Source: Narcine bancroftii (taxonomy: Eukaryota). Taken from it: a DNA stretch of 64,000 nt. The notes under the pieces were generated by a model, which worked only from the letters and a program-made list of their open reading frames with translations, did not search any database and had not been told where the DNA came from. Below are positions 4,461 through 60,320 of the stretch, piece by piece; the stretch's first letter is position 1, and each line of letters begins with the position of its first letter. The stretch covers positions 10,540,001-10,604,000 of the forward strand of contig NC_091478.1 in NCBI RefSeq assembly GCF_036971445.1, written 5' to 3'. The position numbers were made by a program, and so were the translations under genes.

Positions 4461-5072
4461 AGGACCCAGGATCAATCAGCTGTTTAACAGTCTTTCTGAG
4501 TTGCTGTGTAGACAATTCCTCCTTAAAGATTTCACGTCTTGTTTATTGGTAACTCTCAGCAGCACCTTGCTTATTCTGAAGATTACTGTCAGCTGGCATC
4601 AGTAGTTTTAAATTCAGCTTACCTGTAAAAGTCATGTATCTCATCTTGCAAAGGTGATGTAAATCCAGAGGCAGAAGGTTATGGATGATGGAATTCCATA
4701 AATGGAATTAAAACTACTGGAAATATTCAGATTGATGTGAATATTTGCAGTACTTTCTGATATAAATGTAAACAAGTTTCTGCCTGTTAAGACTTCTAGA
4801 AATTATAATGAGTCACAAATTAGAACTTTATATTCTGTATGATGTTTAAGTCTCAAAATTTGGCTCAAATATGGTAGAACAGTATCATATGGTAGTCAGA
4901 AAAGGTACAAAAATTTTAAGAAAGTTACTATCGATTCATGCTGAACAAATTGAATATTTTTCTCAATGTTCTTATCTTGATGTTAGAAAGCTAGTTTATT
5001 ATGCAATTGTGAATATGAATCAAATATGTAACTTCCTTTAGGAATTGGAGGGCTTCGATCAAAATCAAGAAT

Positions 5073-5205
5073 ATGCGAGAAAAGAGAAATGATTCTGTAG
5101 ACTTCGTCAAGGATTTTCAAGAGTATCTCACGCAACAAACACAGCATGTAAACATGATTTCTGGTTCGGTTTGTAATGAAAAGGAACCAGAAGTACTTCA
5201 GCCTG
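5073..5205 (+). CDS. IKZF5: IKZF5 (Pegasus) copy A, coding exon 1
   Basis: MREKRNDSVDFVKDFQEYLTQQTQHVNMISGSV is the Pegasus N-terminus. 133 nt, donor CTG|gtaag, acceptor at 5040-5041. Confidence 0.95.
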
Positions 5206-7289
5206 GTAAGAAAATGCTTAATTTACACACACATAACTTACAAAGGATTTATCATTATTATGGTGTTTCTACATTTATATTCAATATAATGCTAATATTG
5301 AAAATATTAGTACTGAAACATCTCCCTTCAAAGCACTAAAAAGTAGGAGCCACATCTTAGGATTGTTTGCATATGTATCAGTCTTTTTGTGTAATCCGGA
5401 GGTTCATTTCTCTCCCTAAACTGAGAGGGCATTTTGATCAATTTCATTATGGCATGTGAAATATGAACAATTTGTCGTCTGATGGTAATTTGTAAAATAT
5501 TGTACATTACACCATGGCGAAATTGATGAAAATAATGTAAGGAACAAATTCACGAATTTTGTTATCCTTTTGTTTTTTTATAAACCTAGTTTTAAAAATA
5601 ATCCTTTTTATATATAAAAAAAATATTGGCAGAGTTCAACTCCCATGTCTGACAGCCTTTGAGTTCTTTACTCACGACGATTCTTCATATGTGAGATAGA
5701 ACAGTGAACTTTGAACTACCGGTATTCTAATTGGAACCATATACCAAGCTACCCTTATGTGATATCTATGTGTAGATTTCTATGGGGGTTAAATAAACAT
5801 TATTCAAATCATCTTGATTATTTAATACAATCCACTGTGGATTCAGACTCATTTAGTTATTTAATATCTTTATCCAGAGATGGTAGGAAGTTGTTTCTTT
5901 TGTTTTTTTAAAAAAGAGTAGTCTGTGAACACATTGTTGTAAAAGACTGATGGAAAGTAACTTTGTGAATCTCTTAGTTATGGTAGCTCAGTGCAATGCC
6001 AGTATTTGAATATGGTTGACTGAATGATGGCTCCATCTTCAACCTCTTTGAAGTGCATACTCCTTGGAGAGTGCTGTTGCCTCTCAAATTTAGACTCATC
6101 TGTCACTGTACTCCTTTAGTTTGTTGAATCTTGTTTCTATTCTGGCCACTGTGAATTTGCTGTTATCAACATCAAAATATTCACAGATTGTATTATTTGT
6201 AAATGATTGCTCTTTGGCCAACTTACAGCCTTTGACATGGTTGAGCAGATCAACTCCCATATCAGAATATCGCTGACCTGATTGCATTCTTATCAATCTA
6301 GTTATAGCTAAAGAATTGACTTCAGTGGCTTTTCTTGCTCTTGTACTGAGAGTGCCAAGAATTCTTCCAGTGGAAAAATCTGCCATCAGTACCAGTTAGG
6401 ATTATATTATGTCATTTGAGCATTGTTAACTTTATGAAATGGCCATGCAAGATCAAGTTGGGGAACATTTGGGATGGATACGAAATACTAATCTGGCAAA
6501 TACTCCTCCCATGCTATGAAGCAGTAAATTTTTTTTAAAGTCATTGAGAAATAGTGCAAAATAACATTCAGGTCAACTATATGTTGTGTCTCTGTTTATC
6601 CATCCAGTTTCTTCTACAGCTTTTGATGCAGTCAACCCCACCATCCTCCTCTTTTATCAAGCTTAGTTCCAGTTTTGCCTGTCTCATTATATCAGCAGTG
6701 CTTTAATTCCCTCCTAGAACTATTATCTCGAGTCTTTGAAGAATCTTTTCTTGACTACTTCATTGCGTTTGTAACTGCCTTTATGATTAGAACTTGTCAA
6801 ACTCCTTTAGGGCTTTAAGCAATGATAGTAAAAGACCAAAATCACATGTCTATGACTTGCTTATTGGTCTTGTGGTGTTGTACAGCTGCTAGATTTCCTA
6901 CCTTACAATTGCTTTTTTGGCTGATGAGATCTCAAAAATAAAAATCCAAGTTTGCATTAGTGTCCATTTCCACACATTACCTTTTCCTGACATCTTTTTC
7001 TATCTTCCTTAGAATTAAAAAAAAATCATTTTTATATCAACGTGATTTTTTTTTCTGATTTGACAATTATCAGGATTTATGTTGGCTATTTTGCAGTTTG
7101 CTTACCAATTCAAGGTAACTGAGTTTAATTTGTCATATGCTATATATTTCCCAAGATTTTGCCTGTTTTATGAATTTAATCCCTTTGTCTTTTATGTTAT
7201 TTGAATGCATGCAATATAAATTGTATCTATGAAGTATGGATATTTATTTGGTGATAACTTGTTGGGAAATGCTGATAATTCAACACCAA

Positions 7290-7455
7290 ATCGAATCCAG
7301 CACTGTATGTAAGGAGTTTGTACATTCTCATGTTCTCCCCATGTCTGCATGGGTTTCCTCCGGGTGCTCAGGCTTCCTCCCACTGCTCAAAATTTACCGG
7401 GGCTTGTAGGTTAATTGGGCAGCATGCACCCATGAGCTGAAGAGGCCTGTTACTG
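7290..7455 (+). mobile_element. tRNA-derived SINE fragment (HE1/V-SINE-like)
   Basis: Core ggagtttgtacattctc...gggtttcctccgggtgctc, also seen at 16430, 8325 (-) and 40180 (-). Confidence 0.7.
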
Positions 7456-8107
7456 TCAAACTACCAGCATTACTTCATCACTGACATTAACAAGAAGTTT
7501 GGGACTTTCACCTGAATGCTTTAAGTCCAAAACTTGCTAGAGAAGCTTAGTTGTCCAGCAACATTAAATATCACATGAAGACCAGTACTTGGTTTTGAAT
7601 TTACTGCAGTTCTCTTGTTGATATTGAGTAATTGCCACTAAACTGCACCAGGTTAGATCAGGTACAGAATCATGAATGAAGAGGACCAGTCTTGAGAAAG
7701 AAAGGCAAGGAAGTGATCAGTAACATTTCTTTTAATTGTGTTGGATGTGATGTTTTTATTTAAGTTACTTCAAATTATTTTAATTGGTTTTCAATAATTA
7801 TTGAAATAATCTGTTAAAGCACGGGACATGGCTTTCTAGCCAGCATTCAATTATTTCATGGGTGAGACCTTGATCCACTTACAAAAGTCCTATAGCTGCA
7901 CAGACCCTTAATAATTTAGATTAGACAGCATCAAAGCTCCCTGTTGAATTTGGTGGATAGGTAAAAGACAAGGGTATAGTTTTTGCAAAATTCAGTGAGT
8001 GGCTGGGGAGGGGGAGGAATGTGTTGCATTTTGGTTCAATGATTAGTTTCTTGAAGTTTTCTCTTGTATGAAACAATTTTTATGATAGGTTGTACTTTTA
8101 TTGGCAG

Positions 8108-8290
8108 CTGGAACTGAAAATCATCAAAATGGAATCCATCCTGCTTCTGTTGAAGTTTCTCTCGATGATGGCTCTGGGATGATCGGAGATGGGCCAGAAA
8201 GAACAGCTGATGGAAAGTTGAAGTGTCAATACTGTAACTATGCTAGCAAAGGAATAGCACGACTGATGGAACACACCAGAATGCACACAG
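8108..8290 (+). CDS. IKZF5: IKZF5 copy A, coding exon 2 (ZF1: CQYCNYASKGIARLMEHTRMH)
   Basis: Acceptor ggcag|CT and donor ACAG|gtatt give 183 nt, phase 1-1, encoding a C2H2 finger. Confidence 0.95.
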
Positions 8291-8321
8291 GTATTCTAAA
8301 ATTTAAATTAATTAAATTTAA

Positions 8322-8570
8322 ATTTAGACAAGCAGCATGGTAACAGGCCATTCTGGCCCACAAGCCTGTGCTGCTCAAGTACACCCAATTAGCCTACATT
8401 GTCAGCATATTTTGAAGGGTGGGAGGAAACTGGAGCAATTGGAGGAAACCCACACAGTTATGGGGAGAATGTACAAACTCCTTACAGACAGCACCACATT
8501 CAAACCCAGCACACTGGTATTGCTTTTCCCAGAAAGGTGTTGCACTAAATGCTACGCTAACCATGTCGCC
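8322..8570 (-). mobile_element. tRNA-derived SINE (HE1/V-SINE-like)
   Basis: Reverse complement of the SINE family at 16430, with an (aaattt)n tail. Confidence 0.75.
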
Positions 8571-10226
8571 TTGTATTCTGTACACTATCTAAATGACAAA
8601 TTATTGGTTCTATTGTTTGAATGAAGTTGTGAGTCTCGTAAAAGGCAATTTAACATAAAGCTATAAACCAGTCCCCAGTTTCTTTAATATGATCAAATTT
8701 GGTATTCCCTCATGGATTAGATACTTGGACATCTTACCATTAAACATAGTATTCAAAACAATGTTAAAATTATTAAAGCCAAACTTCTCCCTTTAAACAG
8801 TTGAATTTTCATGGAAGAATTTACGGGAACTCAACTGTTATGCAATAAATCGCTATACACATTAACAAGTAATTTTAAATTTGGTTTGTGCCATTATATC
8901 TACATTATGTACACGTTAATTTTTTATGACATTTGTCACTTATTTGCATCTGAATAAAAATTTGACAAATGCAGAATGAGTTGGTGGTCTCTTGCAGCTG
9001 GCAAGGCACATGCACAAGTCCATTTTCCTTATGACCATTTTAGTGATCTTGTACTGGGATTCTCTGTTTCTTGAGATAAAAGGAGGCTGTACTAATCTCC
9101 AGCATTACATAGACCCTTCAGAAATGTTACCAATTGTTTAAGCACAAGGATGTAGTTTGTAGTCTGTTTACCTGCTTTCATTTAATGTGCCTTAGAACCT
9201 TGTGTTTATTTTTGTGTAATCTGGAATTTATTTTAGGATTGAGGATACAGATGATGGATGTCTTATTCTGTTTTTGAAATAGTAGAATTGAATACATCTT
9301 TGGGTTACTGGAGATCATCTTTATGTATGCAGTTTTCCTCTAATTGGCTAATAGAACATTAATAATGGGTAATTAGTCCTAGATTATTTCATTTCAGGGA
9401 AATTAATCTCAAAGAACATATCCAATATAAAAAAAGATGAACAAAAATGCGAGTGAGTAGGAGGTTGTGTTAGGATATTCTAATTAACAGGGTAGTGGTG
9501 CTATTCATTGATCACTACTCTGTGAGCTGAACACAAACTGTTGGCAAGCTTTGAGATGTAACAATGTGGCACACCAGCAGATCTGGACAAGAAATAGTGT
9601 GGGTTGGCCCATCAATCAGATTCACTAGCCATACTGGATAGAAACCAAGGAATAGTATTTAAATTTAATGTAAATTAATTTGCAGAAAATAAAATAACAA
9701 GAATGAAAGAATGGGTGGAATGGAAAAATAAATATGGAAATAAAATTAAAAATTAAAATTATCAAGATTTGTTAACTTCTGAAGAAAGAATCCAAAAATT
9801 GTTAAAATATAATTTTATGGCCAAGGAAATTGTTTTCTGTAAGTAAAAATTGGCACACTGTTAAAAATTCACATGCCTCTGAATGCAGCAACCTTTTGTC
9901 CATACTAAATGCATTTAAGATGCAGGGAGGAGAGTTTAAAGGAAATGTGAAAGGCAAATTATTTTATACAGAGTAGTAGGTGCTTGAATTAGGTACTCAG
10001 GAATAGCGGTGAAGCATACAATATTATCGTTTAAGAGGCTTTTAGAAGGACAAATGAATATACAGAGAATAGGGATATGGATCACATGCATGTAGCAGAG
10101 TTTTCTTTCAACTTGGACATCATGTTTGGTGCAGATATGTGGGCCAATGGACCTGCATCTGCATTTTGTGTTAACTGGAGAACTGGGGGGGGGGGGGGGG
10201 GTTAATAAAACCACAATATTCTATTA

Positions 10227-10644
10227 CAGGTACACAATCCTTTATCCTGTCTTCTAAAATCTGGAAAGCTCCAAAAACCGGCATTTTTTCCTGGTGCTGG
10301 TACAGCGGAGGGAGAGAGAGAGAGAGATAGCAGGGCCACTAGTTTGAGTGGGTGGGCGAGGGGGGGGGGGGGGAGAGAGATGGCAGCGTGACTCGGGTGG
10401 GCAGGGGGGGAGGAGAAGGAGAGACGGCAGTGAGACTCGGGCGAGGGGAGAGAGAGATGGCAGCGTGACTTGAGGGGGGGGTGGAAAGAGAGATGGCAGC
10501 ATGACTGGAAGGGGGTGGATACGGCAGCACAATTCAGATGGGGTTAAAACTGGAGCAGCTGGCTTTTGTTCTGAAATCTGGAAAAAATCCGAAATTTGGA
10601 ACACCCTGTCCCCCAAGGGTTCCAGACAAAGGATTGTGTACCTG
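10227..10644. mobile_element. Tc1/mariner-pogo type MITE with an internal G-rich repeat
   Basis: Perfect 17-bp terminal inverted repeats CAGGTACACAATCCTTT...AAAGGATTGTGTACCTG, with TA on both sides (TSD). Confidence 0.85.
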
Positions 10645-10859
10645 TATTGATTTAATGCTGAGTAAAGGTGGGATACTGTGCAGGTAGATGTCTGGGTCAT
10701 TTTCATATTCAAATGTGAAGAATTTACACCATAACATTGAGAGCTATTAAGTTCTCCATTATTGAAATCCTCTTTAAAAAGGTTTTGCTAAATCATCACA
10801 ATTAGTTTTAACAGTGCACCTCTATAAAATGAAAAGCATTTGTAATTAGTTTGGGATAT

Positions 10860-11380
10860 AATTTAAGAGTAGGAAGGTTCTGCTACAATTGTACATGGTA
10901 CTGGTAAAGCCCCATCTGGGGTGCTGTGTACAATTCGGGTCTCCTTACTTGAGAAAGGATATAACTGACCTTGGAAATGGTGCAGAGGAGATTCATCAGG
11001 TTGATTCTGCAAATGATGGGATTAGATTATGAGGAGAAGATGGGTATTCTTGGATAAGACTCATTGGATTTAGAAGGATGATGGGTTTCTTGTGGAAACA
11101 AAACTATGGAAGGATTATATAAGATGGAAACAGGGAAGTTGTTTCCACTGGCAGGTGAGACTAGAACGAAAGATTTATATGAATAGGTTTAAGACAATGA
11201 AGAGGAATTGCTTCTCCCAGAAAGTAGAGAATTCTCAGACACGGTCTTGAAGAATGAGGGATATAGTGAATGAGCAGGTAAGTGGAGCTGAGACCGTGGC
11301 CAGATCAGACATTATCTTAATGAATGGGAAAGCAGGCTCATCAGGCCAGATGGTCTAGTCCTCCCATTACTTTTGTTTTA
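10860..11380 (+). mobile_element. CR1 LINE 3' fragment
   Basis: Degenerate LY..LV.PHL..CVQF.SP..RKDI..LE.VQRRF motifs. Confidence 0.8.
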
Positions 11381-12329
11381 TAGTTTTTGTTGAGTGCATT
11401 TGGGTTCCTATTATTGCTATGTTAGTCCATTCTCAATATCTCTGCAATCATATCGAAAACCTGAACTATTGAAGGATAAGAAACATGGTTGTAGAGATGG
11501 AAAGAATATTTTTTTTAGAGGAACCAATGTTATTTGTAGTGTATTGAAATATAGTTTATGTTTATATAATTGAAGTTAGTTGGGCTTGGATGCAGAAGTA
11601 GGAAAAGTAATTAAGGTATTAAAATAAAAAGTATGAACTAAGAATTTATTTTTATCCAAAATTCTGCATTTGAAGATGGAATGGAATTAAAATAATGAAA
11701 TCAAAAAAGACATTTTAATAGCTTACGTGGCATTGAGAAAAGAGATGTGAGAAATTCTAAAAAGGAATAATGAAGTGGCACCAATGTTGAATGTTGTGAA
11801 CACGCCATATTGTTGGTAAAAAGACAAAATATTTCCTGAAAATAGAGGAGAATGAAGGGAGAACTGCATAAGAAATCCTATTTGATAAATTCTCATTTTG
11901 AAATTGCTAACGGTGCGTTGGATAGTAGAAAAATGCAATTGCAAATACTGGAAATCTGAAATAAAACAGGGTGGAAATACTCAGGTCAGGCCGCATCTGT
12001 AGAGAGAGAAAAACAGTTGATATTTGAGGTCTGATCTTTCAGGATATACAATTACTTGTGATATCTTGAACTGAGGATTTTTTTTAAAGGGGGAAGAAAA
12101 AGAATGACAATAAGTAAATCCCTTTCAATCACTGGAATAGCACAAGGATCCTGTGTGGTCCTGGGTAACTTCTTATCTCTATCAATGATGACAAGCTGTT
12201 GAAATATAATGCACTCGGGTTTGCTGTTGATACAAAGCAAGATGGGAACATAAGGGAATGATGCAGCATTCAAATAAGTGTCGACAGGAATGTAGCACAT
12301 GTGAAGTTTCTACTTCGGCAAATGAGTAG

Positions 12330-13065
12330 AACATTACAGCACAATTCAGGCCCTTTGGCCCACAACATTATGATAATCTTTATAAATCTGCTCAACGATC
12401 TAAACCTTCCCTACCTCATAGCCATAACCCTCAATGTTCCTAAGAATGCTTTAAATGTTCCTATTGTACCAGTCTTCACCATTTCAAGCATCCACTGCAC
12501 TAGGTGCAAAAGGAAAAAAAAACATATCCCTGATGTCTCCCCTAAACTTTGTTCCACTCAGCTTAAACGGTTGTCCTCTGATATTTGATATTGTTGCCCT
12601 TGGAAAAAGGTGTTGGCTGTCCACCCTATCTATGCCTCTATAATCTTGTGGACCTCTTATTAAGTCACCTCTCATCCTTCTTCGCACCAAAGAGAAAAGT
12701 CCTACCTTTGTTAACTTTGCCTCAAAAGATTCATTCTCCAATCCAGGCACCGTACTGGTAAATCTTCGCACCTTCTCCATAGCATGCACATCCTTCCTGT
12801 AATGAGGTGACCAGAACTGAACATAATATTCTAAGTGTTCTATACAGCTGCAACATTGGCTAAAGACTCTTGATCCCAGTCCCCTGACTAATGAAGGCCA
12901 GAAGTCCATGTCTTCTTAACAACATGTGCCATCCCTCTTCTTCCACACAGTTAAGAATCCTGCCATTAACCATATACTCCACCTTTAAATTTGACCCAAA
13001 AGGCATCATTCACATTTAACTGGATTGAACTCCATTTGCCACTTCTCTGTCCAACTCTGCATTTT
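12330..13065 (-). mobile_element. CR1 LINE 3' fragment
   Basis: ORF 12484-12909 has HLEYYVQFWSPHYRKDVHAMEKV...LFSL.RRRMRGDLI. Confidence 0.9.
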
Positions 13066-13721
13066 ACTCTTGATATTTATTCAGAAGGACCCAGTTTACA
13101 TAAAAATGCTGGAGAAATTCAGCAAATCTCACAGCATTCTTTATATACACTTCATACCTAAAGTACTAAGTATATATTTGAACTTATTACCTTGAAAATA
13201 TTCTTACCGTAGATGTACAACACAAATTCAATTAGAATAAACTGGCCTTTCATTCCTGGATTTTAAAAAATTCCATTCTTAATGCAATAAATAAGCCTAA
13301 AGGCTTGGCAGATTGGAATACTGAGAATAATGACTGGAGCTTTTGACCAATGCCAGCATTAATGACTTGGCATGTTGCTCTGTTTGTGTCCTCGTTTTTG
13401 TTACATGTATGAGTCTAAGGTAGTGGCAGTATGTCCTGACCTGCTGCTTTTGCTCTATGTTGGTGAACTCCTTGAGGTGCAGTATAAATTTCTACTTGCC
13501 TGATAAGCTTGTGCCAGTTTTTAAAAGATCCAAGTTTTTGTTTTCGTCAGTGTCAATTCTGACAGCTAGTTAGTTAGGGGGGAGCTGTCAAAAGGTTCCT
13601 GCATTGCCTGCTTAGAACTTTATACCTGGGGTAAACTGGAAGAAACTTGTGGTCCAGTGATTGGCAGCTGGAAGTCTGTGGTCACATCATTTCCTTTGGT
13701 TTGGAAATCTAGAAGTAGGTA

Positions 13722-13952
13722 CAGGCAATCACCAGGTTATGAACGAGTTCCGTTATCTGGGTCTGTCCATAAGCCGAATTTGTGGACAAGACGGAACAGG
13801 GTACTTACGGTTCTTAATTAGCCTTCATGAGGTAAGGTGCATTATGCACATGTGCCATTTGGGGGCATTTATGCGTGTGCGAATTGGGAAACAGTCTGTT
13901 CGTAAGTACAAGTTGTTCATAACCTGGATGTTCATAACCCAGGGACTGCCTG
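13722..13952. mobile_element. Tigger/pogo-like MITE
   Basis: Imperfect TIRs of about 23 bp, CAGGCAATCACCAGGTTATGAAC...GTTCATAACCCAGGGACTGCCTG, with TA TSD. Confidence 0.8.
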
Positions 13953-14214
13953 TATCACCATGTCTGAAAGAGTGTATTGGTCATTTAGAAGTGGAACAAG
14001 AAATGTATTCGCTCAAAGTGTGATGAACAGTGGAGGTTGAATATATCCAAGCATTGTTAAATTATTAGATTTTTGATTTTGCTGGATTGAAGAGATGGTG
14101 CATTTAGATAGCACTGAAGTAGAACTGTTGAGCGCTTAAAGAAAGAGAAGGCTCAAAAGTTCTGATGACCGAACTCTGCTTTAATTATATTATGCTTTTG
14201 TACTTCCAATACAG

Positions 14215-15143
14215 GTGAAAAGCCCCATAGGTGCCATTTGTGTCCATTTGCTTCAGCTTATGAACGTCATCTTGAAGCACACATGCGCTCACATAGAGGT
14301 GAAAAACCATACAAATGTGAGCTTTGTTCATTTCGTTGCAGTGATCAAAGTAACTTATCTCACCATCGTAGACGCAGACATAAACTTCTTCCACTGAAAG
14401 GACGCAGGACGTCTTTGACCAATAAAAGAATGATGGGAATCTTACAGAAAAAGTCTGGCTACTCCCTGAGTTATGGGAGAAGACCAATGATTAATTTCAG
14501 TTCTCTGCCAATGCTGGTGCAGAAGACAGATTACCTTGATGAATTTTCTCATAACCTACCAGCTGAATCTTATGAGAGTCTTGGAAAGGCTCAGACAAGT
14601 GGAATCTCAAGGGATATTCAGGACATGGTTGATAATCCATTAAACCAGCTATCTGCTTTAGCTGGCCAGCTTTCCAGCCTTGCACATGATGACCAAGCTC
14701 CAGCATCTTCTGATGTCGCATCTTGCAGGGATGAAAAACCATATGTGACACAAATTTCTATTGCACCAAATGTTTCCACTGTGGTTTCAAGTGTGGCACA
14801 GAGCTCCTCCAATGTTAGTCCTGACAGACATCCAGTGCATAATCAGAGAAACTTCAGTCCTGTAGCAGGACCAAGTAGTGAGCACAGTGCTCACATGAGC
14901 TCACCATGCATGACGAACAGCCAACCTAGCACCCCTACTCCTCCAATTCAAGTCCAGGACCCCCAGCTTTTGCATCATTGTCAACACTGTGATATGTATT
15001 TTGCAGACAATATCCTTTACACCATCCATATGGGGTGCCATGGGTATGAGAACCCATTTCAATGTAACATATGTGGATGCAAATGTAAAAATCAATACGA
15101 CTTTGCTTGTCACTTTGCTAGAGGTCAGCATAAACAAATTTAA
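14215..15143 (+). CDS. IKZF5: IKZF5 copy A, last coding exon (ZF2, ZF3, linker, C-terminal dimerisation fingers ZF4-5); spliced CDS 1245 nt, 414 aa
   Basis: Acceptor tacag|GT, then an uninterrupted ORF with CQHCDMYFADNILYTIHMGCH and CNICGCKCKNQYDFACHFARGQH, ending at TAA 15141-15143. Confidence 0.97.
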
Positions 15144-42031: not shown

Positions 42032-43689
42032 GTAAATGCTGTATGCTATTGATTGATACAGGATCTGCAATAGAAAAACATGATCAGATTTGCCAAAAGG
42101 ACCAGTACTGTGAAAATATAGCAAATGACAGACATTCCACAGTAAAATACAAGGATTTTGAATTCTTAGTATCTTGTATAATTCTGAATTATTAATATGA
42201 AATGATTTTGAGTCTTTTCATCCTAATGAGATCGCAACAGTGGTGGTGGGTTGTACATGAAGAGAAAATGTAATTGCAACAGTTAAATCCTAAATGAGAT
42301 TAATGTGAACTATTTAAATAGATCTCTGGACTTCCAATACCATCAAGTTTCATGTCCAGCATGAGGAGGGTGGTGTGTAAGCTATTTACTTAACAAAAAT
42401 TTGAAGGCTCCTTCCATTCAAAATATTAAAGAACTGCAATTAGATTGTATTTTCTGTAAGTTGATAGTTGATTTTATTAGTTAAGTGAGTGTTAATAACC
42501 TTTGTATGATCATTTGCTGGTTGGCAATGTAAGGGAGAGAAATTGACTTCAACAAATATATTTTTTCTAACATATCGGGAGTCCTTCTATAATTTTGTGC
42601 GGGTTGTCTATCAATTTATCTATTTATTCATTTGTTTCATTTCACACTGCTGGCTCAATGACATCTTGTTTCACCAGTTCATTCTCCTCTTTCAGGCAAG
42701 ACGTTCATTCCATGAACAAAACTATCACAATTCTCTACATCAGTTTGATTTATTTTAATGAGTACCAATGGGAGTCTCCATGTTTAAAGTAAAAAGGGCC
42801 AGGTATATCAAAAAAGCTAGTAAGGATTAAAGTGTAAAATATCATTGGTAACATCCAGCTGAGACAACTGTAGCACAATATGTAGTGCTCCTCTAGTGTG
42901 TCGGATGCTGTAAAACCAGCCAATAACAGCGACAGCTTTCATTTTTAATTACTTGAGGAATTTTTGAGCACCTCAGCGTCAAATTGTACCCGATGTTCAA
43001 TCCTGAAAACGTTATTCACTTTATTTTACAACATTATTATTTCTATTTGATTTTTGACCCACGTTTCTTCCTTAACACTTTTAAAAGCTAAAATCGGTGT
43101 CTGGCAACCTGACTATTCAACTGAAAATATAAACAAAAGTACTGCATTTGCTAGAAATCTGAAAAAACACTGAAAATACTACCATTGCTCAGCAGGTCAG
43201 GCAGCATCTGATAAGAGAAACAGAGTTAACATTCCATGTCCAAGATCTTTCATCAACTCTTAACTCCTTTGGTTTCCACAGATCTGCTTGACCTGATGAG
43301 TATCATCAGAAAAGGGCTGGAAATAATGTTAACACTTGATTGCAGCATAATTTATCTGTTAACTGAACTTTCAGCCTTTAATTGGTGAGGTTGAGTGATA
43401 CAAATCCATTGGAAACTCATTCATCACCCATGTGGGAGAAAGTTAATCACTCTGCAATTGACAAACATGAAATGTACAAATCCACACTGAGGAAAGAAAG
43501 AAGAGTACAACTATTCTGTCTTGTTAAAATTGCAACCATGCTGCTTGTTAATTGACAACCAAATAGCAATTTTAACAATAATCTAAGAGTTCCATGGATC
43601 CTTCAACACAGCTGAAGGACACGATTCTAGAAAAAAAATGCAAAGAGGGATAAAATGGCAAGGTTGTTGATCTATTCTTTCTGATACAG

Positions 43690-44627
43690 GTGAGAAGCCC
43701 CACAGATGTCACCTATGCCCGTTTGCTTCAGCGTATGAGCGTCACCTCGAAGCACACATGCGCTCACACACAGGTGAAAAACCATACAAATGTGAGCTAT
43801 GCTCTTTCTGCTGCAGTGATCGAAGCAATTTGTCCCATCACCGTAGACGTAGGCACAAACTTCTCCCCTTGAAAAATGCTAGGACCTGCCTAACCAATAA
43901 GAAAATGTTGGGAGTTTTACAGAAAAAAACTAGCAACTCCCTGAATTATGGCACAAGACTTCTGATTAATCTAAGTCCTCCTTCCATGGTGGTACAGAAG
44001 CCAGATTACCTCAGTGACTTTTCTCATGATGTTTCAGCCAACTCCTGTGAGAATTTGCGAAAGTTGCAGTCTGGTGGGATTTCGAGGGATACTCAAGATC
44101 CCTGTATTATAGTAGATAATCCATTAAACCAGCTTTCTACTTTAGCAGGCCAATTATCCAGCCTTCCACCTGAAAATCAAGCTCCAGCATCTCCTGAGGA
44201 TGTAGCCTGCCGAGATGAAAAACCATACGTGATCTCACAATCTGCGGCACCAGTCGTTTCCACGGTAGCTTCCAGTGTGGCCCAAAGCTCATCCCCTATC
44301 AGTCCCGATGCATGCCCCATGCACAGTCAGCAGAATTTCAGTCCTGTAGCTGGCCCCAGTAGTGAGCACAGTGTCCACACAAGCACGCCCAGCACGACGA
44401 ACAGCCAACCTAGCACCCCTGCTCCTCCAATTCAAATTCAGGATCCCCAGCTACTTCATCATTGTCAACACTGTGACATGTATTTTGCAGACAATATCCT
44501 TTATACTATTCATATGGGGTGTCATGGCTACAAGAATCCTTTTCAGTGCAATATCTGTGGGTGCAAATGTAAAAACAAATATGATTTCGCTTGTCATTTT
44601 GCTCGAGGTCAACACAAGCAAAACTAA
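43690..44627 (+). CDS. IKZF5: IKZF5 copy B, last coding exon; spliced CDS 1254 nt, 417 aa
   Basis: Acceptor tacag|GT, then an intact ORF with ZF2-ZF5 ending at TAA 44625-44627. Confidence 0.97.
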
Positions 44628-52199: not shown

Positions 52200-53300
52200 T
52201 CCTCATCCTTTGATTAGTACTAACCAAATAAGTTCATTTGCAAACTAAGACCCATTATCACTAAAAGCCTGACACACTCCAAATCTTGGAAAGATTTCTT
52301 TCGCATGTACTTCTGCTACTGTTTTGGTGTCTGCATGAACTGTGGGAAATGTTTCAACCCACCTTAAGAACCTATCAATTATTACTAAGGAATAACATTT
52401 TCCTTCTGCATGCTCGATCGTATCTACAGAGTCCAAGACTTGGTGAATATTGGACATAGAGCCTGGTGATGGAGGAATTTTTTTCTTTGCCTTTGTTTCC
52501 TGGCAAATTTGACATCTCAAAATTGTATTCGTGTATTCTGTCAATTGTATGAACCAGTGGTTCCAAATTTTATTCATCATTTGTCCCTTTGTGGAGTGAC
52601 TCACCCCATGAGCTGTTCAGCAAGTTTCCTGTATTAAGTCGCTAGGTGCCACAATTTCTCTCCAGAGGCCTACCAATTTGCCTGAGGTGCACCATTTGGT
52701 TTCCCAATCTTCTTTCTCACTAACTGTTGTGACCTGATGTGCTTCACCTAAATCCTGCAGAGGTACCTCTTCTAGCAATGCTGCTCGATCTGGCCAAGCC
52801 CAGTACTCCTACTAGTTAAAGCTATCAGCTGCATTTTTGCAGCCTTGTCTGCATGGTCATGACCAAGAGACCCTGGATCATTGCTCTGTGTGTGTGTGTG
52901 TGTGTGTGTATGTATCACTGCCAATTCGGATGGTCGTTTCATGGCCTCAAGCAGTTCTCTAATTTCATATTTGTTGCCAACAGGGTTTCGTCCTGCAGAG
53001 AAGAATGTTCTAGCCCGTCTCTACACCAGTTATGGACTACATCCAAACTTGGGCAGAATCACCCTCTGTATTGTTTGCATGCTTCAGCCAATGCTGAGGG
53101 TTTGGCTTGTACCCAATTGCCAGAATTCTGTGCTTTTGATGATTGCATACTCCGGTTTTTCTCACCCCTGTCCCTCAGTCGATAAAGAATGATCCATCCA
53201 CGAACAACACTATCTGAATCTTGCAGCTGGTCTGCAATTGCCTGGCACACATGCTCATCTCCATCGTGACATCATTAGTTCTGTTACACCTCAATAACCC
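52200..53300 (-). mobile_element. Endogenous retrovirus pol fragment (RNase H and integrase), frameshifted
   Basis: RNase H motifs LFVDGS and GHDHADKAAKNAA. Integrase zinc motif HGVSH...CQIC and core YSLVIIDRFLRWVETFPT...KEIFPRFG...SDNGS. Confidence 0.85.
52885..52908. repeat. (TG)n microsatellite
   Basis: Directly visible, inside the ERV fragment. Confidence 0.9.
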
Positions 53301-53302
53301 GG

Positions 53303-54636
53303 CTGCGAGGTCAGATGATTGGCGGACGTCCCCTGTCCACCAGAGGGCGTGCCTGCAAGTGCGAGGCCGGGTGATTGGCGGACGTCCCTTGTCCACCAGA
53401 GGGCGTTCCTGCAACTGCGAGGCCGGGTGATTGGCGGACGTCCCCTGTCCACCAGAGGGCGTTCCTGCAGCTGCGAGGCCGGGTGATTGGTGGTCGTCCC
53501 CAGGCCATTAGAGGGCGTGCCTGCAGCTGCGAGGCCGGGTGATTGGCGGACGTCCCCTGTCCATTAGAGGGCGTGCCTGCAGCTGCGAGGCCGGGTGATT
53601 GGCGGACGTCCCCTGTCCACCAGAGGGCGTTCCTGCTGCTGCGAGGCCGGGTGATTGGTGGACGTCCCCTGTCCACCAGAGGGCGTGCTGCAGCTGCGAG
53701 GCCGGGTGATTGGCTGACGTCCCCTGTCCACCAAAGGGCGCGCCTGCAGCTGCGAGGCCGGGTGATTGGCGGACGTCCCCTGTCCATTAGAGGGCGTGCC
53801 TGCAGCTGCGAGGCCGGGTGATTGGCGGACGTCCCCTGTCCACCAGAGGGCGCGCCTGCTGCTGCGAGGCCGGGTGATTGGTGGACGTCCCCTGTCCATC
53901 AGAGGGCGCGCTTGCAAGTGCGAGGCCGGGTGATTGGCTGACGTCCCCTGTCCACCAGAGGGCGCGCCTGCAGCTGCGAGGCCGGGTGATTGGCGGACGT
54001 CCCCTGTCAATTAGAGGGCGTGCCTGCAGCTGCGAGGCCGGGTGATTGGCGGACGTCCCCTGTCCACCAGAGGGCGCGCCTGCTGCTGCGAGGCCGGGTG
54101 ATTGGTGGACGTCCCCTGTCCAATAGAGGGCGCGCTTGCAACTGCGAGGCCGGGTGATTGGCTGACGTCGCCTGTCCACCAGAGGGCGCGCCTGCAGCTG
54201 CGAGGCCGGGTGATTGGCGGACGTCCCCTGTCCACCAGAGGGCGTTCCTGCTGCTACGAGGCCGGGTGATTGGCGGACGTCCCCTGTCCATCAGAGGGCG
54301 CGCTTGCAAGTGCGAGGCCGGGTGATTGGCTGACGTCCCCTGTCCACCAGAGGGCGCGCCTGCAGCTGCGAGGCCGGGTGATTGGCGGACGTCCCCTGTC
54401 CATTAGAGGGCGTGCCTGCAGCTGCGAGGCCGGGTGATTGGCGGACGTCCCCTGTCCACCAGAGGGCGCGCCTGCTGCTGCGAGGCCGGGTGATTGGTGG
54501 ACGTCCCCTGTCCAATAGAGGGCGCGCTTGCAACTGCGAGGCCGGGTGATTGGCTGACGTCCCCTGTCCACCAGAGGGCGCGCCTGCAGCTGCGAGGCCG
54601 GGTGATTGGCGGACGTCCCCTGTCCATTAGAGGGCG
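53303..54636 (+). repeat. 56-bp tandem array, 24 units; consensus TGCGAGGCCGGGTGATTGGCGGACGTCCCCTGTCCACCAGAGGGCGCGCCTGCAGC; occupies the PSTK promoter position
   Basis: Units counted by eye from the core at 53337 to the core at 54624. Each has TGATTGG (inverted CCAAT box). Thirteen have exact CCACCAGAGGGCG; the rest differ by 1-3 nt. Confidence 0.95.
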
Positions 54637-54661
54637 GGCCGGCCGACCGCGGCGTCGGCGG

Positions 54662-54841
54662 ATGAAGGGCGTCTGCGTGTGTGTGGTGGCCGGCCTGCCG
54701 GCTGCGGGGAAGAGCACGTTCGCTCGCCTTCTGCCCCAGTTCCTGCGGCCCAGGTTCGAGTCGGTGCTGCTGTGTTACGACGATGTGATTCCCGGGGAAG
54801 CTCTGGAGGCCACGGCGCAGGTGGGTGACGCCACGGCGCAG
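54662..54841 (+). CDS. PSTK: PSTK exon 1, L-seryl-tRNA(Sec) kinase (P-loop GLPAAGKST); alternative donor at 54820
   Basis: MKGVCVCVVAGLPAAGKSTFAR...YDDVIP matches the PSTK Walker A and YDD motifs. Donors CAG|gtgggt at 54820 and CAG|gtgagt at 54841 are both phase 0. Confidence 0.9.
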
Positions 54842-55054
54842 GTGAGTGACGCCACGGCCAGTGGGTTGCATTAAGGCCACAAGGGTGTCTTCGCCAGGGC
54901 AGCAGCAGCACCTCCATCTAGTGGCGGCGGCGGCCCTGACTCCGGGCCACGACGGCTCCAGGGGGTCTATCCCGGGGTGATAAATGGACCTTGGTCCATT
55001 TCCTTTTCGAGTACTGAAACCGTGCACATAACGAGTCAATGAGGGACGATGACA

Positions 55055-55802: not shown

Positions 55803-56091
55803 AGTTCACTGTGGAAATTGTACAGGCATAAACTGCTGGAAAATGTTGAATGCCTAATTCAGGCGATTAATGGGAATGGCCACCTTTCTCTTTCTGGCAA
55901 TGAAAAGGACTTGGTGGGGGAGTGCTTTATTCAGTCGCTGAAACAACAGCAAATTATTCCTGGAGAAACCCACCATGGAAAGCAGCAATACCCAGTTTGC
56001 ATCACACATTCAAAGCCCTTCATTATAATTTTGGATGACAACTTCTACTATCAAAGTATGAGATACGAGGTTTACCAGATGGTGAGGCGAA
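55803..56091 (+). CDS. PSTK: PSTK exon 2
   Basis: SSLWKLYRHKLL...IILDDNFYYQSMRYEVYQMVR, with the PSTK DDNFYY.SMRYEVYQ motif. Acceptor ttgcag, donor A|gtaag, 289 nt. Confidence 0.95.
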
Positions 56092-57457
56092 GTAAGTTCC
56101 CTGTGGCGACTTTATAATTATAGTTTGTCTAATAATGTATATGAAAACTTGCAACATCCTTACTAACAAAATATAGTACCCTTTGTAAATGTGATAACGA
56201 TGCAACAATTTAACATCTTGACACACGCGTAAGTAATGTTTAAGGTTTTGAAACTTCACATTTCATTCACATTTTAAAATGATGATAAATATCAGCAAAT
56301 AGTATTGTTACAAAGAATCTTCTGTAGAATCCATTACGGTGGTGATCGATTTGATGATGTGATGGGTCTGCTTCTGGCCTTAAATTTCTTTTGAAGGCCC
56401 TCATTCCTTAGTAATAATTGAATCGCACACAGTATTGTAAATTAAGACTACATTTTGCTGTGCTGATGAACTTTGAGTCCACTAATGGGGTAAACTGTTC
56501 ATTTAAAAGTTGAGTCAGTGATAGATTGGAATATGTTCCACTGAGATTTGTTGCACTATTGGAATGATTAGGATTGCAAGGATCTGTTTACAAGATTCCA
56601 AGCTTCTGTTTACTTCTATCTCAAGATTGCTTTTAAATAATGGGCAGAATTTTAGGATAATTATAAAAGGCACAGGTAAAATTATTTTATGCAATTTAAA
56701 GCCTGTTTCAACAGACCTCCTCAATAATAGGAGTGGCAAATAAACTTAGCAGTGTACTACTGAAGTATGTAAAGTAAGAGGGGTCCAATACTAATCAGTC
56801 TGTTGAGCTGGGGCAATAATTGGGTAAATAATGTGGCTTATTTCAAAAACTGCTGAGAAAAATCGGCTAGTTTTTTTGTCCTTAATGTCTATTCAATAAT
56901 CTGCATAGCAGCAGAATTGGAAAGGACAGGGATGAGTTCAGTTGCAGTGACGATACTTTGAATAACTTGGTAAACAATTCTTCTGATTATTGAGCTAGCA
57001 GTGGAATGGAGAATGTTGAAAAATGAGCTGTGTTGCCTAAATAAAGAATGGTCACATAGGTTTCTAAATGAAGAGGAAACTGGAATTTATGGTGATAGAT
57101 TGTGGAGTGGGCCACACTGTTTACATAGACTTAATCAGGGTTTGATGTCTCAGTGTCTCATTTAGAGAAGAAATGTACAAAACTTAATGCTCAGAATAGT
57201 GTACAAGACAGGAGTGCACATTTATTGACTGTTATATACTATGCTTCACACTGCAGTTGAGATGTGCTGTATCTGGCCTGGATTGATTCAAGCTAACCAG
57301 GGATTTTTTTTTTAGCCTATTAAGATTCAATATAATTTTATTGATTTTAGCAAAATCAGAATACCAAGGTGAGTGCTGAAGTGGAATATCAACTTCATAA
57401 TAATTATGACAGAAATTAAAGTTAAGATAAAACATTCACCACTCTATTTCCTAAAAG

Positions 57458-57659
57458 ATTCCATAGGCTTCTTGCAGCTCTTTCTGAAGTGCCCAGTTGA
57501 ATTATGTCTGAAGAGGAATCATGAGCGGGGTTGTCTGGTAAACGATGAAACAATAATTCTGATGTCAACAAAAATCCAGCTGCCAGACCCTGAGAAAAAT
57601 TCATGGGAAAAGAACAGTATTATACTGAACAATTCAGAAAATATAGTAGAAGATGAGAT
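57458..57659 (+). CDS. PSTK: PSTK exon 3
   Basis: SIGFLQLFLKCPVELCLKRNHER...PDPEKNSWEKNS. Acceptor aaag, donor AT|gtaagt, 202 nt. Confidence 0.93.
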
Positions 57660-59119
57660 GTAAGTCAGTTTTAAATTTTCTAATTGGTATTAATTTTCTT
57701 TAATACTTATATGCATGTTTGGTTGGGGAAACAATAGCATCCAACTTGGGAGGCTATGCATCAGTTGTTTTGGAAAATTAACTATTTCTATTGTTGGTTG
57801 GTGAATTTTTGTTTCCATCCGTGAAATGGTTCATTTATATTTATCCTTTGAGAAGTCTATCTTCCTTGCCAAGGGAACTTTATGATGTGTAATAGGGGCT
57901 CACTTCAGCCTGGGGACACGATACAGTAAAGATACTGACTATTTTTGAATTTGGAATATTAGTTTATTGCCAAGTGTACTGAGAGGAAAAAATGGTTCCA
58001 TTTTAAATTTGAAAGTTCACAGAAATTCTTTAAAAGTTACATGATCAAATTGGATTTCTAGCATTTTGGCCGAACAGAAAATTCACAGCAGCTTCCTGCT
58101 TTCCAGGAACTGTTCAGTCATAAGCAGGGGGATGGGAATGCAGCACAAATAGATGCTCTGTACCATCGGTTGTGCAGTCCCAGTAAGATCGGGTTGCGTG
58201 ATCAGTAACGCACCTGTACCTACCCAAGTTGCCGTCGCACTCTCACGGGTGACCTCCACTGTCCTAGCTGCTCCTTCCTTCTCTCAGTAACCACAACCAC
58301 CATGTAGTGTGAGTTTGAGTACTTTCCTGCCAAGCAAGGGGTTGGTGGTAGCATAGTGGTTCAATCCTGGCACTATTCCAGATGGAACAAAGCCCACACC
58401 AAGGATTTTGTCACTGATTGATGACAAAGGGGAGTTGATGGACATGTGAGAGAGGATAAATTGCAAGATGGCAAAGAGGGAATGGATCTATTGTGAGGTT
58501 ACATTGACCTAATGCGTCAAAGAATGGGCCAGTGTGTCATAAGTAAGAATGTTGTAATTTAAAAATTATTGTTGAGCTTTGCACTGATAACATCATTTTT
58601 GTTTACAGTGAAGAATGACAGATCATTTATGAAATTTCCCAGAGTCGATGTAACTTCAGTTTTGCTCTAAAATGAATGACCTTGCATCAATTGCCGCAGT
58701 TGCTTGACTTGGAGTATTCTTGTTTTAATTACTGACACTAGATAGAGTTCCAGTTCCTGACCAACTTCCTGCAGTCTTTAAACAAAAAAGGATGTAGTTG
58801 GGGACAGTTTAGTCAACAAAGTATCAAGACTATGGCATCTTGGAGAGTGATGCTCACAAATGAGTGAAGAGTTTGTAAAGAGTAAAGCAGTACAAAATTA
58901 TTAAAGTGGGAATTTTAAAAACATCATCACTCTGCTATGCTTTCATAATTTTGCTTTTTTTGCCATCACTGGGAGTAAACTAAGAAATGTTGATTTCAAC
59001 AATGTTGCCAAAATATTGTCAAATCTGTTTCTCATACTTAGTTTAAATCCAGTATTATGTACATTAATTTAAATCAAATATTAATGTACATTCATATCCA
59101 TTCATAATTTGTTTTACAG

Positions 59120-59195
59120 ACAAAAGATATTTCAACTCCTTGAGAGTTCATTAGAAAATCCAGAGAAGCCATTGGAAGAAAACACTGAGCAAAAG
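59120..59195 (+). CDS. PSTK: PSTK exon 4
   Basis: QKIFQLLESSLENPEKPLEENTEQK. Acceptor tacag, donor AAG|gtaaat, 76 nt, phases consistent. Confidence 0.9.
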
Positions 59196-59677: not shown

Positions 59678-59771
59678 GAGAGGGATCGTGCAATTTGTGC
59701 AGTTAGTGCTCTTCATCAAGCTGATCAAACCTTTCGCCGCTTGGTATCTCAGTCTATGAAAACTGCAAAAG
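59678..59771 (+). CDS. PSTK: PSTK exon 5
   Basis: ERDRAICAVSALHQADQTFRRLVSQSMKTAK. 94 nt, canonical splice sites. Confidence 0.92.
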
Positions 59772-60108: not shown

Positions 60109-60320
60109 CTAAGAAACTATCAAAGCTTAATTTGAAGTTGTTGTCTGGAGAATTGAACAAGCTTAAGACTGTGCTTTTGGAAGACCTTCGACATCTTACC
60201 TTCCAGGGCAACCCTTCAAAGCTTTCTGATGATGTTGATGCAATTGTCGTAGAAGCTGCACATGAATTTGACCATAAAAAGGAAGAAATTCTTAAGAATT
60301 TTCTAAAATCCTCAAATTAA
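60109..60320 (+). CDS. PSTK: PSTK last coding exon; spliced CDS 1053 nt, 350 aa (343 aa with the upstream donor)
   Basis: Acceptor ctctag after a polypyrimidine tract; LKLLSGELNKLK...LEDLR; TAA at 60318-60320; AATAAA near 60510. Confidence 0.88.

Follow-up and report, generated by a model that had tools for sequence, protein, structure and literature searches.

Three kinds of element are each known separately: minisatellites built on CTCF sites (DXPas34), minisatellites whose unit has an NF-Y site (ABO), and promoters made of tandem monomers (mouse L1, with monomers of about 200 bp and YY1 sites). Clustered CTCF sites are also familiar from IgH 3' CBE and DXZ4, which are kilobase-spaced and distal; at Pcdh, Igh and DXZ4 the spacing between sites ranges from hundreds to thousands of bases, and the sites are placed between enhancers and promoters. 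DXPas34 at mouse Tsix is CpG-rich and promoter-adjacent, has one CTCF site in each of its short monomers (34 bp), and is lineage-specific with a varying CTCF content (PMC3149622). The 43-bp CBF/NF-Y minisatellite of ABO is a tandem CCAAT unit, bound by NF-Y and variable in copy number between alleles (PMC11318969), and the mouse L1 5' UTR is a promoter of tandem monomers that doubles as a 5' leader (PMC9022269). Housekeeping promoters activated by CTCF serve genes that are needed broadly and have a forward motif a short way ahead of the gene start (10.1101/095802; PMC12695661). The 2xCTS start sites under BORIS/CTCFL have several motifs per region and sample-restricted extra transcription (PMC10832218), and the tandem insulators of Pcdh and Igh (PMC7087399), as well as DXZ4, hold many co-oriented CTCF motifs. 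In several of these respects they resemble the array described here, which lies directly upstream of PSTK in the electric ray Narcine bancroftii. PSTK is required for selenocysteine synthesis. Our literature search, with most subscription journals outside its coverage, found no paper on this locus.

The window, that is, the whole 64,000-nucleotide stretch of DNA that was analysed, contains the features listed in Table 1. The first-pass annotation had placed 24 units of about 56 bp just before the ATG of PSTK, and this was borne out: the unit length is 56 bp in 23 of the 24 units and 55 bp in one, and about 20 bp separate the array end from the ATG. The units differ pairwise by 8.5% on average, and some are identical. 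The unit-to-unit distance reaches minima at lags 4, 7 and 11, a higher-order repeat of 3-4 units, and these dips are the mark of block duplications. With variant head-to-tail repeats in the 10-100-bp range, the array has the build of a locus-specific minisatellite. Its GC content is 69%, its CpG observed/expected ratio 0.78-0.80, and each unit holds 4-6 CpGs. The single plus-strand ATG within the array is at 53315 in unit 1; that units 2-24 have none carries no statistical weight as evidence of selection, since each unit offers 10 one-off sites and mutation events are few. Stops in all six frames ruled out the array as coding sequence, and the translated unit, compared by eye with the N-terminal extensions of shark PSTK models, showed no resemblance.

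Table 1. Features of the PSTK locus and of two further minisatellites (window positions unless a contig is given).
Feature	Position	Strand	Remarks
First zinc-finger copy, last exon	14169-15143	+	77.5% like second copy
Second zinc-finger (IKZF5-like) gene, last coding exon	43671..44627	+	stop 8.7 kb before unit 1
Broken retroviral-type pol fragment	52229..53234	-	many stops; weak integrase core hit (E 6e-6, under the Pfam cut-off); similarity to dispersed relatives 65-72%
Tandem array, 24 head-to-tail units	53302..54644	+	TRF period 56, 23.9 copies, 90% matches
Unit 23	54533..54588	+	unit nearest the ATG with all three best motifs
Unit 23, strict reverse CCAAT	54549-54553	
Unit 23, TGACGT	54555-54560	+
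Unit 23, full CTCF 14-mer	54568-54581	+
Unit 24	54589..54644	+	reverse CCAAT 54605-54609
Unit 24, variant core CCATTAGAGGGCG	54624-54636	+	overlaps GC box GGGCGGG 54632-54638
PSTK exon 1, coding part	54662..54841	+	in-frame donors 54820 and 54841
PSTK exons 2-6	~55803-56092, 57458-57660, 59121-59195, 59678-59771, 60111-60320	+
CTCF-motif minisatellite	C15:160450020-160451775		32-bp unit, 54.9 copies, 99% matches, 18 with CCACTAGGTGGCA
CTCF-motif minisatellite	C23:87889904-87890456		32-bp unit, 17.3 copies, 99% matches, 17 with CCACCAGAGGGCA

The motifs in the units were scored by consensus patterns, and the sites given here are predicted ones. The earlier counts all held: the reverse CCAAT box TGATTGG is in 24 of 24 units (GTGATTGGC in 18), the exact CTCF 13-mer CCACCAGAGGGCG in 13, the CpGs do not exceed six per unit, and no plus-strand ATG follows unit 1. 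RCCAATCA is also in every unit. The strict forms are rarer: the strict NF-Y consensus [A/G]GCCAATCA quoted in the first-pass annotation is found in 5/24 units and the full CTCF 14-mer in 7/24. The other 11 CTCF cores read CCATTAG (5), CCATCAG (2), CCAATAG (2), CCACCAA (1) and CAATTAG (1); when tested for CTCF-likeness, the CCATYAG variants gave 1.5-2.3-fold and the T tail 1.3-1.7-fold. Variation between units sits in this core, not in the CCAAT part, over which the longest invariant run extends (17 columns; p 0.004, or 0.045 with adjacent changes merged). The two motifs are 17 bp apart within a unit. An ACGT core stands 3 bases past ATTGG in 23/24 units; it is a CRE-like TGACGT in five, the same five that have the strict CCAAT, and four of these also hold the full CTCF 14-mer. 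Among 200,000 shuffles of the unit, the CTCF core arose in 0.17%, the CCAAT box in 3.5% and both in 0.005%, a post hoc test in which the 24 copies count as one event, not 24. The ATTGG-N-NNACGT of these 23 units is spaced like the ERSE-II stress element (ATTGG-N-CCACG), from which it differs in the bZIP half-site. A second, forward CCAAT occurs within the CTCF core of units 15 and 22.

The assignment of the ATG at 54662 to PSTK proved correct: exon 1 is spliced to exon 2, which is 100% identical to the Narcine bancroftii protein labelled L-seryl-tRNA(Sec) kinase and is matched in the genome only once. The database isoform is spliced from the donor at 54820, the RNA in runs X5 and X6 from 54841, which adds 7 aa. 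The two donors arise from a 21-bp duplication (54809-54866) that copies the exon 1 donor, and other rays have a longer linker in the region. Nine further PSTK models (eight from sharks and sawsharks and one more) show an L[ED][EQT][RG]-type stretch 14-20 residues before Walker A, mostly without a Met there, and several of them are labelled as partial or carry long, unrelated N-terminal stretches; ray models begin with Met. These protein models hint at a non-AUG start of shark PSTK.

On the contig, the array is preceded by an acyl-CoA dehydrogenase gene on the minus strand (presumably ACADSB, by synteny), two C2H2 zinc-finger genes on the plus strand (a pair which we take to be IKZF5-like) and the pol fragment, and it is followed by PSTK and by PAAT, 57 kb beyond the window end. 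The zinc-finger genes (5019-15143 and ~24000-44627) each have their own CpG island. Human PSTK and IKZF5 are convergent, and PSTK may be inverted in this ray relative to the human order. A split bidirectional promoter with PAAT was considered and dropped, as unit-like sequence is absent from the PAAT promoter.

The pol fragment is 65-79% alike to its dispersed relatives and ends at the array. Similarity to these relatives runs to 53234 and weakly to 53283, about 20 bp short of unit 1, so that the gap is only ~20-70 bp and hardly any other upstream promoter DNA is left close to PSTK. The promoter DNA remaining before the ATG apparently amounts to one unit plus ~20 bp, with the array forming about the whole upstream CpG island; the islands of nearby genes are ~1-1.5 kb long. 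By sequence the array qualifies as a CpG-island promoter (GC >50%, observed/expected >0.6, at a gene 5' end). The CpG observed/expected ratio is 0.78 in the array versus 0.28 in the retroviral fragment, and methylation-type CpG loss ends at unit 1. Transitions affect 2/12 CpG columns and 7/44 others, no excess on nine events only, which would fit low germline methylation. An old retroelement insertion or rearrangement would have left less than ~100 bp of the PSTK promoter, and a duplication would then have been expanded by unequal exchange, as the higher-order repeats suggest, rebuilding a CpG island of 1.3 kb. We infer the order, truncation before amplification, from the sequence.

All matches of the unit in the genome (8/8 DNA matches and 21/21 pattern matches, in searches that give lower bounds) fall in the array, as expected of a single-locus repeat and not of a dispersed satellite. 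The unit is absent from the nine relatives of the pol fragment fetched among 76 matches, and it is not shared with these retroelement copies as a retroviral LTR repeat would be.

Parts of the stretch occur in nine sequencing runs. One sample accounts for four DNA-like runs (share 0.56), one study for four RNA-like runs (0.44 in X5, 0.19 in X6, 0.15 in X7 and 0.14 in X8), and X9 has another organism label (0.12). Contigs were placed for four of the nine (X1, X5, X6 and X9) within 54589-55050 only; the RNA placement took in two of the four RNA-like runs, both from the same study, none of the nine is recorded as RNA, and the contigs carry neither strand, start nor expression level. In the DNA run X1, depth was 17 on exon and intron and 390-566 when summed over unit 24, a figure which is not a copy number. 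One unit junction reached 3.0x the single-copy depth versus two copies in the assembly, in a single DNA sample and by contig depth, which does not give copy number. The tandem joints in X1 have the junction letters of the assembly, so the array is no assembly artefact; short-read contigs contain its unit junctions. The DNA runs do come from one sample, possibly the assembly's own, and the genome searches are lower bounds, but the units carry ordered variants, the junction letters are identical in DNA and RNA contigs, unit 24 is far deeper than single-copy DNA, and the unit is unmatched elsewhere. The array can hardly be explained as an assembly artefact, as a dispersed satellite or as a piece of a retroviral LTR. 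The reading of X9 as a second species was given up: its array contigs have a depth of ~4 and exon 1 has none, the X9/X1 ratios agree between a junction (0.071) and dispersed repeats (0.059-0.073), and we read it as ~1x carry-over from the same genome.

In X5 and X6, position 54841 is joined to exon 2 and the depth at 54845-54972 is zero, which indicates that both runs contain spliced RNA. X6 gave one contig, from 54597 inside unit 24. The unit-junction contigs of X5 had a depth of 170-289 compared to 981 on exon 1 (17-29%), of which DNA carry-over accounts for at most ~6. One X5 junction occurs in the assembly only at 53904 and 54296, which puts the upstream reach of the RNA at 350 bp or more from the ATG. 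Simulated shares were 0.43 for cover from unit 17 (X5, 0.44) and 0.185 for cover from 54597 (X6, 0.19). Multi-unit RNA is present in X5, not in X6; at the proportion seen in X5, the junctions in X6 would have a depth of ~50-90 and should assemble, so the array RNA likely differs between the two samples.

Since the X5 contigs carry no strand or ends and a zinc-finger gene on the strand of PSTK stops 8.7 kb upstream, the array RNA of X5 may be antisense, or may come from read-through of that gene. The array would on this account be mainly a transcribed 5' leader, antisense or read-through zone: the multi-unit RNA would start further upstream or run in the opposite direction, and no unit would be a start site. 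We regard this as very unlikely: promoter motifs are present in each unit, a full leader folds at ~-0.5 kcal/mol per base, which would hinder scanning, and the leader is absent from X6.

Our preferred reading, to which we give a probability of roughly 55%, is that the array is the PSTK proximal promoter in 24 copies, likely a stack of small housekeeping promoters. It is a locus-specific minisatellite and a CpG-island promoter, and it most likely works like a tandem promoter. The claim of the first-pass annotation that the proximal promoter itself was amplified gains support from a unit that is locus-specific, lies between the pol fragment and the ATG, has kept its CpGs and is partly transcribed. 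In NF-Y promoters the start lies 60-100 bp downstream of an RRCCAATCA-type box. In unit 23 the CCAAT box lies 111 bp and the centre of the forward CTCF core 88 bp before the ATG; both would suit a start shortly ahead of the ATG, which for the CTCF core would mean 10-30 bp. CTCF at promoters sits ~60 bp upstream of the start, in direct orientation in 90% (10.1101/095802), and the promoters activated by it, many of them of housekeeping genes, have the site at a median of ~79 bp upstream and are cohesin-independent, a function common to CTCFL; at -50 to +400 bp CTCF can repress (PMC12695661). NF-Y fixes start sites, holds promoters open and limits upstream starts (10.1101/369389).

Under the tandem-promoter reading, NF-Y and CTCF, as predicted from the motifs, would hold the DNA open, and transcription would begin mostly close to the final one or two units, with forward CTCF acting as a local activator ~60-80 bp upstream of the start. 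Inner starts would usually be damped by the CTCF motifs just downstream of them and would be released in some tissue. Only the start of the last unit would have no CTCF motif downstream, and initiation would thereby be concentrated towards the 3' end. Longer RNAs from the array would encode normal PSTK, because units 2-24 contain no ATG. BORIS/CTCFL turns clustered CTCF sites into start sites in mammals (PMC10832218), and CTCFL exists in sharks, where it is testis-biased (PMC7471279); activation of this type could account for the RNA in X5. The changed CTCF cores (11/24), the rarity of the strict CCAAT (5/24), the modest excess of the CTCF pattern over a Markov expectation in this genome (1.6-3.4-fold), the 17 bp between the two motifs and the little overlap of NF-Y and CTCF peaks reported for human cells (PMC7793273) weigh against a tandem promoter, and only 29% of strongly bound promoters with a forward motif required CTCF (PMC12695661). 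A longer chain of events can be drawn, in which a retroviral cut reduced the promoter to <100 bp, the remnant copied itself 24-fold, CTCF focused starts on the last unit, a tissue factor such as CTCFL released starts spaced by 56 bp, and copy number set PSTK output and selenoprotein capacity. As a whole we hold it to be improbable, and any effect on selenoprotein synthesis is speculation.

The same data bear on a neutral minisatellite, in which the promoter function resides in the final one or two units, while the other 22 arose passively from the instability of GC-rich repeats and are transcribed only by leakage. The X6 RNA ends in unit 24, the CTCF cores drift in 11 units, and other CTCF-motif minisatellites of the genome (54.9 and 17.3 copies of 32 bp) come without a CpG island, as this account would have it. 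Moreover, a human ABO allele lacking three of the four NF-Y repeats has normal transcript levels (PMC11318969). It fits less well with array RNA at 17-29% of exon depth in X5, or with CpGs kept array-wide and an invariant CCAAT, although recent homogenisation could equally explain the latter two. We consider a neutral array possible but unlikely.

The distribution of CTCF motifs in the genome shows how much weight the motifs can bear. The CTCF pattern had 2643 matches compared to 181 for the reversed control, and exceeded the Markov expectation 1.6-3.4-fold; the 14.6-fold excess over the control was discarded as inflated, since the reversed pattern always includes a CpG. The genome holds 18 exact 14-mers, of which 7 are in the array; the other 11 fall at 10 loci, nine with a single site each, and all 10 loci lie outside CpG islands. 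Tandem cores were matched 44 times (reversed control, 7): 4 in the PSTK array, 16 apiece in two further arrays, 4 in a short repeat that is itself duplicated, and 4 as single pairs. Both other arrays (Table 1) have one orientation and neither CCAAT nor CpG island, and from their sequence they are better candidates for pure insulators than the PSTK array. CTCF-motif minisatellites recur in this genome, with at least these two further long ones, and among those found the promoter-like build is peculiar to the PSTK array.

Several smaller observations belong here. The 17.3-copy array lies ~8 kb past an ORF that presumably is SLC35E3. Three CTCF cores each are found in a short repeat of 41 bp x 4.7 that occurs at two places, inverted relative to each other (C9:173371948-173372140 and C9:174133761-174133855), and in another of 32 bp x 2.9 (C1:160122313-160122520). 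The CCAAT and CTCF spacing was rejected as a common promoter module: 29 of 49 matches are outside the array, and none of 12 fetched is in a CpG island. In seven dispersed look-alike stretches (C5:38980249, C5:181229861, C8:266755582, C16:245011, C16:15034115, C16:92285505 and C29:53385112) ATTGG precedes a CTCF-like core; they probably belong to an old repeat family by which CTCF motifs were dispersed.

A combined promoter and insulator, whose co-oriented CTCF sites would stop extrusion by cohesin or form a barrier and so shield PSTK from the retroviral fragment and the zinc-finger pair, would account for 13 exact cores in 1.3 kb in a single orientation, for the concentration of exact 14-mers in the array and for the halt of CpG loss at unit 1. 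Skate domain boundaries follow the CTCF orientation code (PMC10115646), and mammalian tandem CTCF sites insulate (PMC7087399). We nevertheless think it decidedly unlikely. Forward motifs just before a start are equally the published activator layout, which explains the orientation of the array without a boundary, and clustered CTCF sites have been linked to transcription, not to inert boundaries (PMC10832218). No convergent partner with a strict core was found in 224 kb, and one relaxed minus-strand match lies 78 kb rightward. The neighbours seem to be housekeeping-type genes, with no evident enhancer to block. The tandem promoter thus fits better than the insulator. Nothing in these analyses supported the loop-anchor role put forward in the first-pass annotation, or its suggestion that copy number or methylation tunes PSTK and with it selenoprotein synthesis.

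The array offers a natural series on whether promoter CTCF activates, represses or insulates according to copy number and position, and it bears on how CpG islands can regenerate. Compared with known systems, DXPas34, the ABO minisatellite and the mouse L1 monomers seem closer to it than IgH 3' CBE or DXZ4. DXPas34 serves X inactivation at a non-coding gene, with no CCAAT box reported in the excerpted source (PMC3149622), whereas the PSTK unit is the presumed proximal promoter of a protein-coding gene. The ABO repeat has 1-4 copies, lies 3.8 kb upstream and is an enhancer of disputed effect, the excerpt reporting no CTCF motif (PMC11318969). The L1 monomers belong to a retrotransposon, and the PSTK array belongs to a host gene, with a 56-bp unit at one locus. 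The 2xCTS sites under BORIS are known from mammalian germ and cancer cells (PMC10832218), and the PSTK array from the sequence and RNA contigs of one ray. CTCF-activated promoters have one bound site in the excerpted reports (10.1101/095802; PMC12695661), in contrast to the 13-24 predicted sites in tandem at PSTK. What appears new here is the amplification of a whole minimal promoter with both motifs, at the sole PSTK gene and beside a retroelement.
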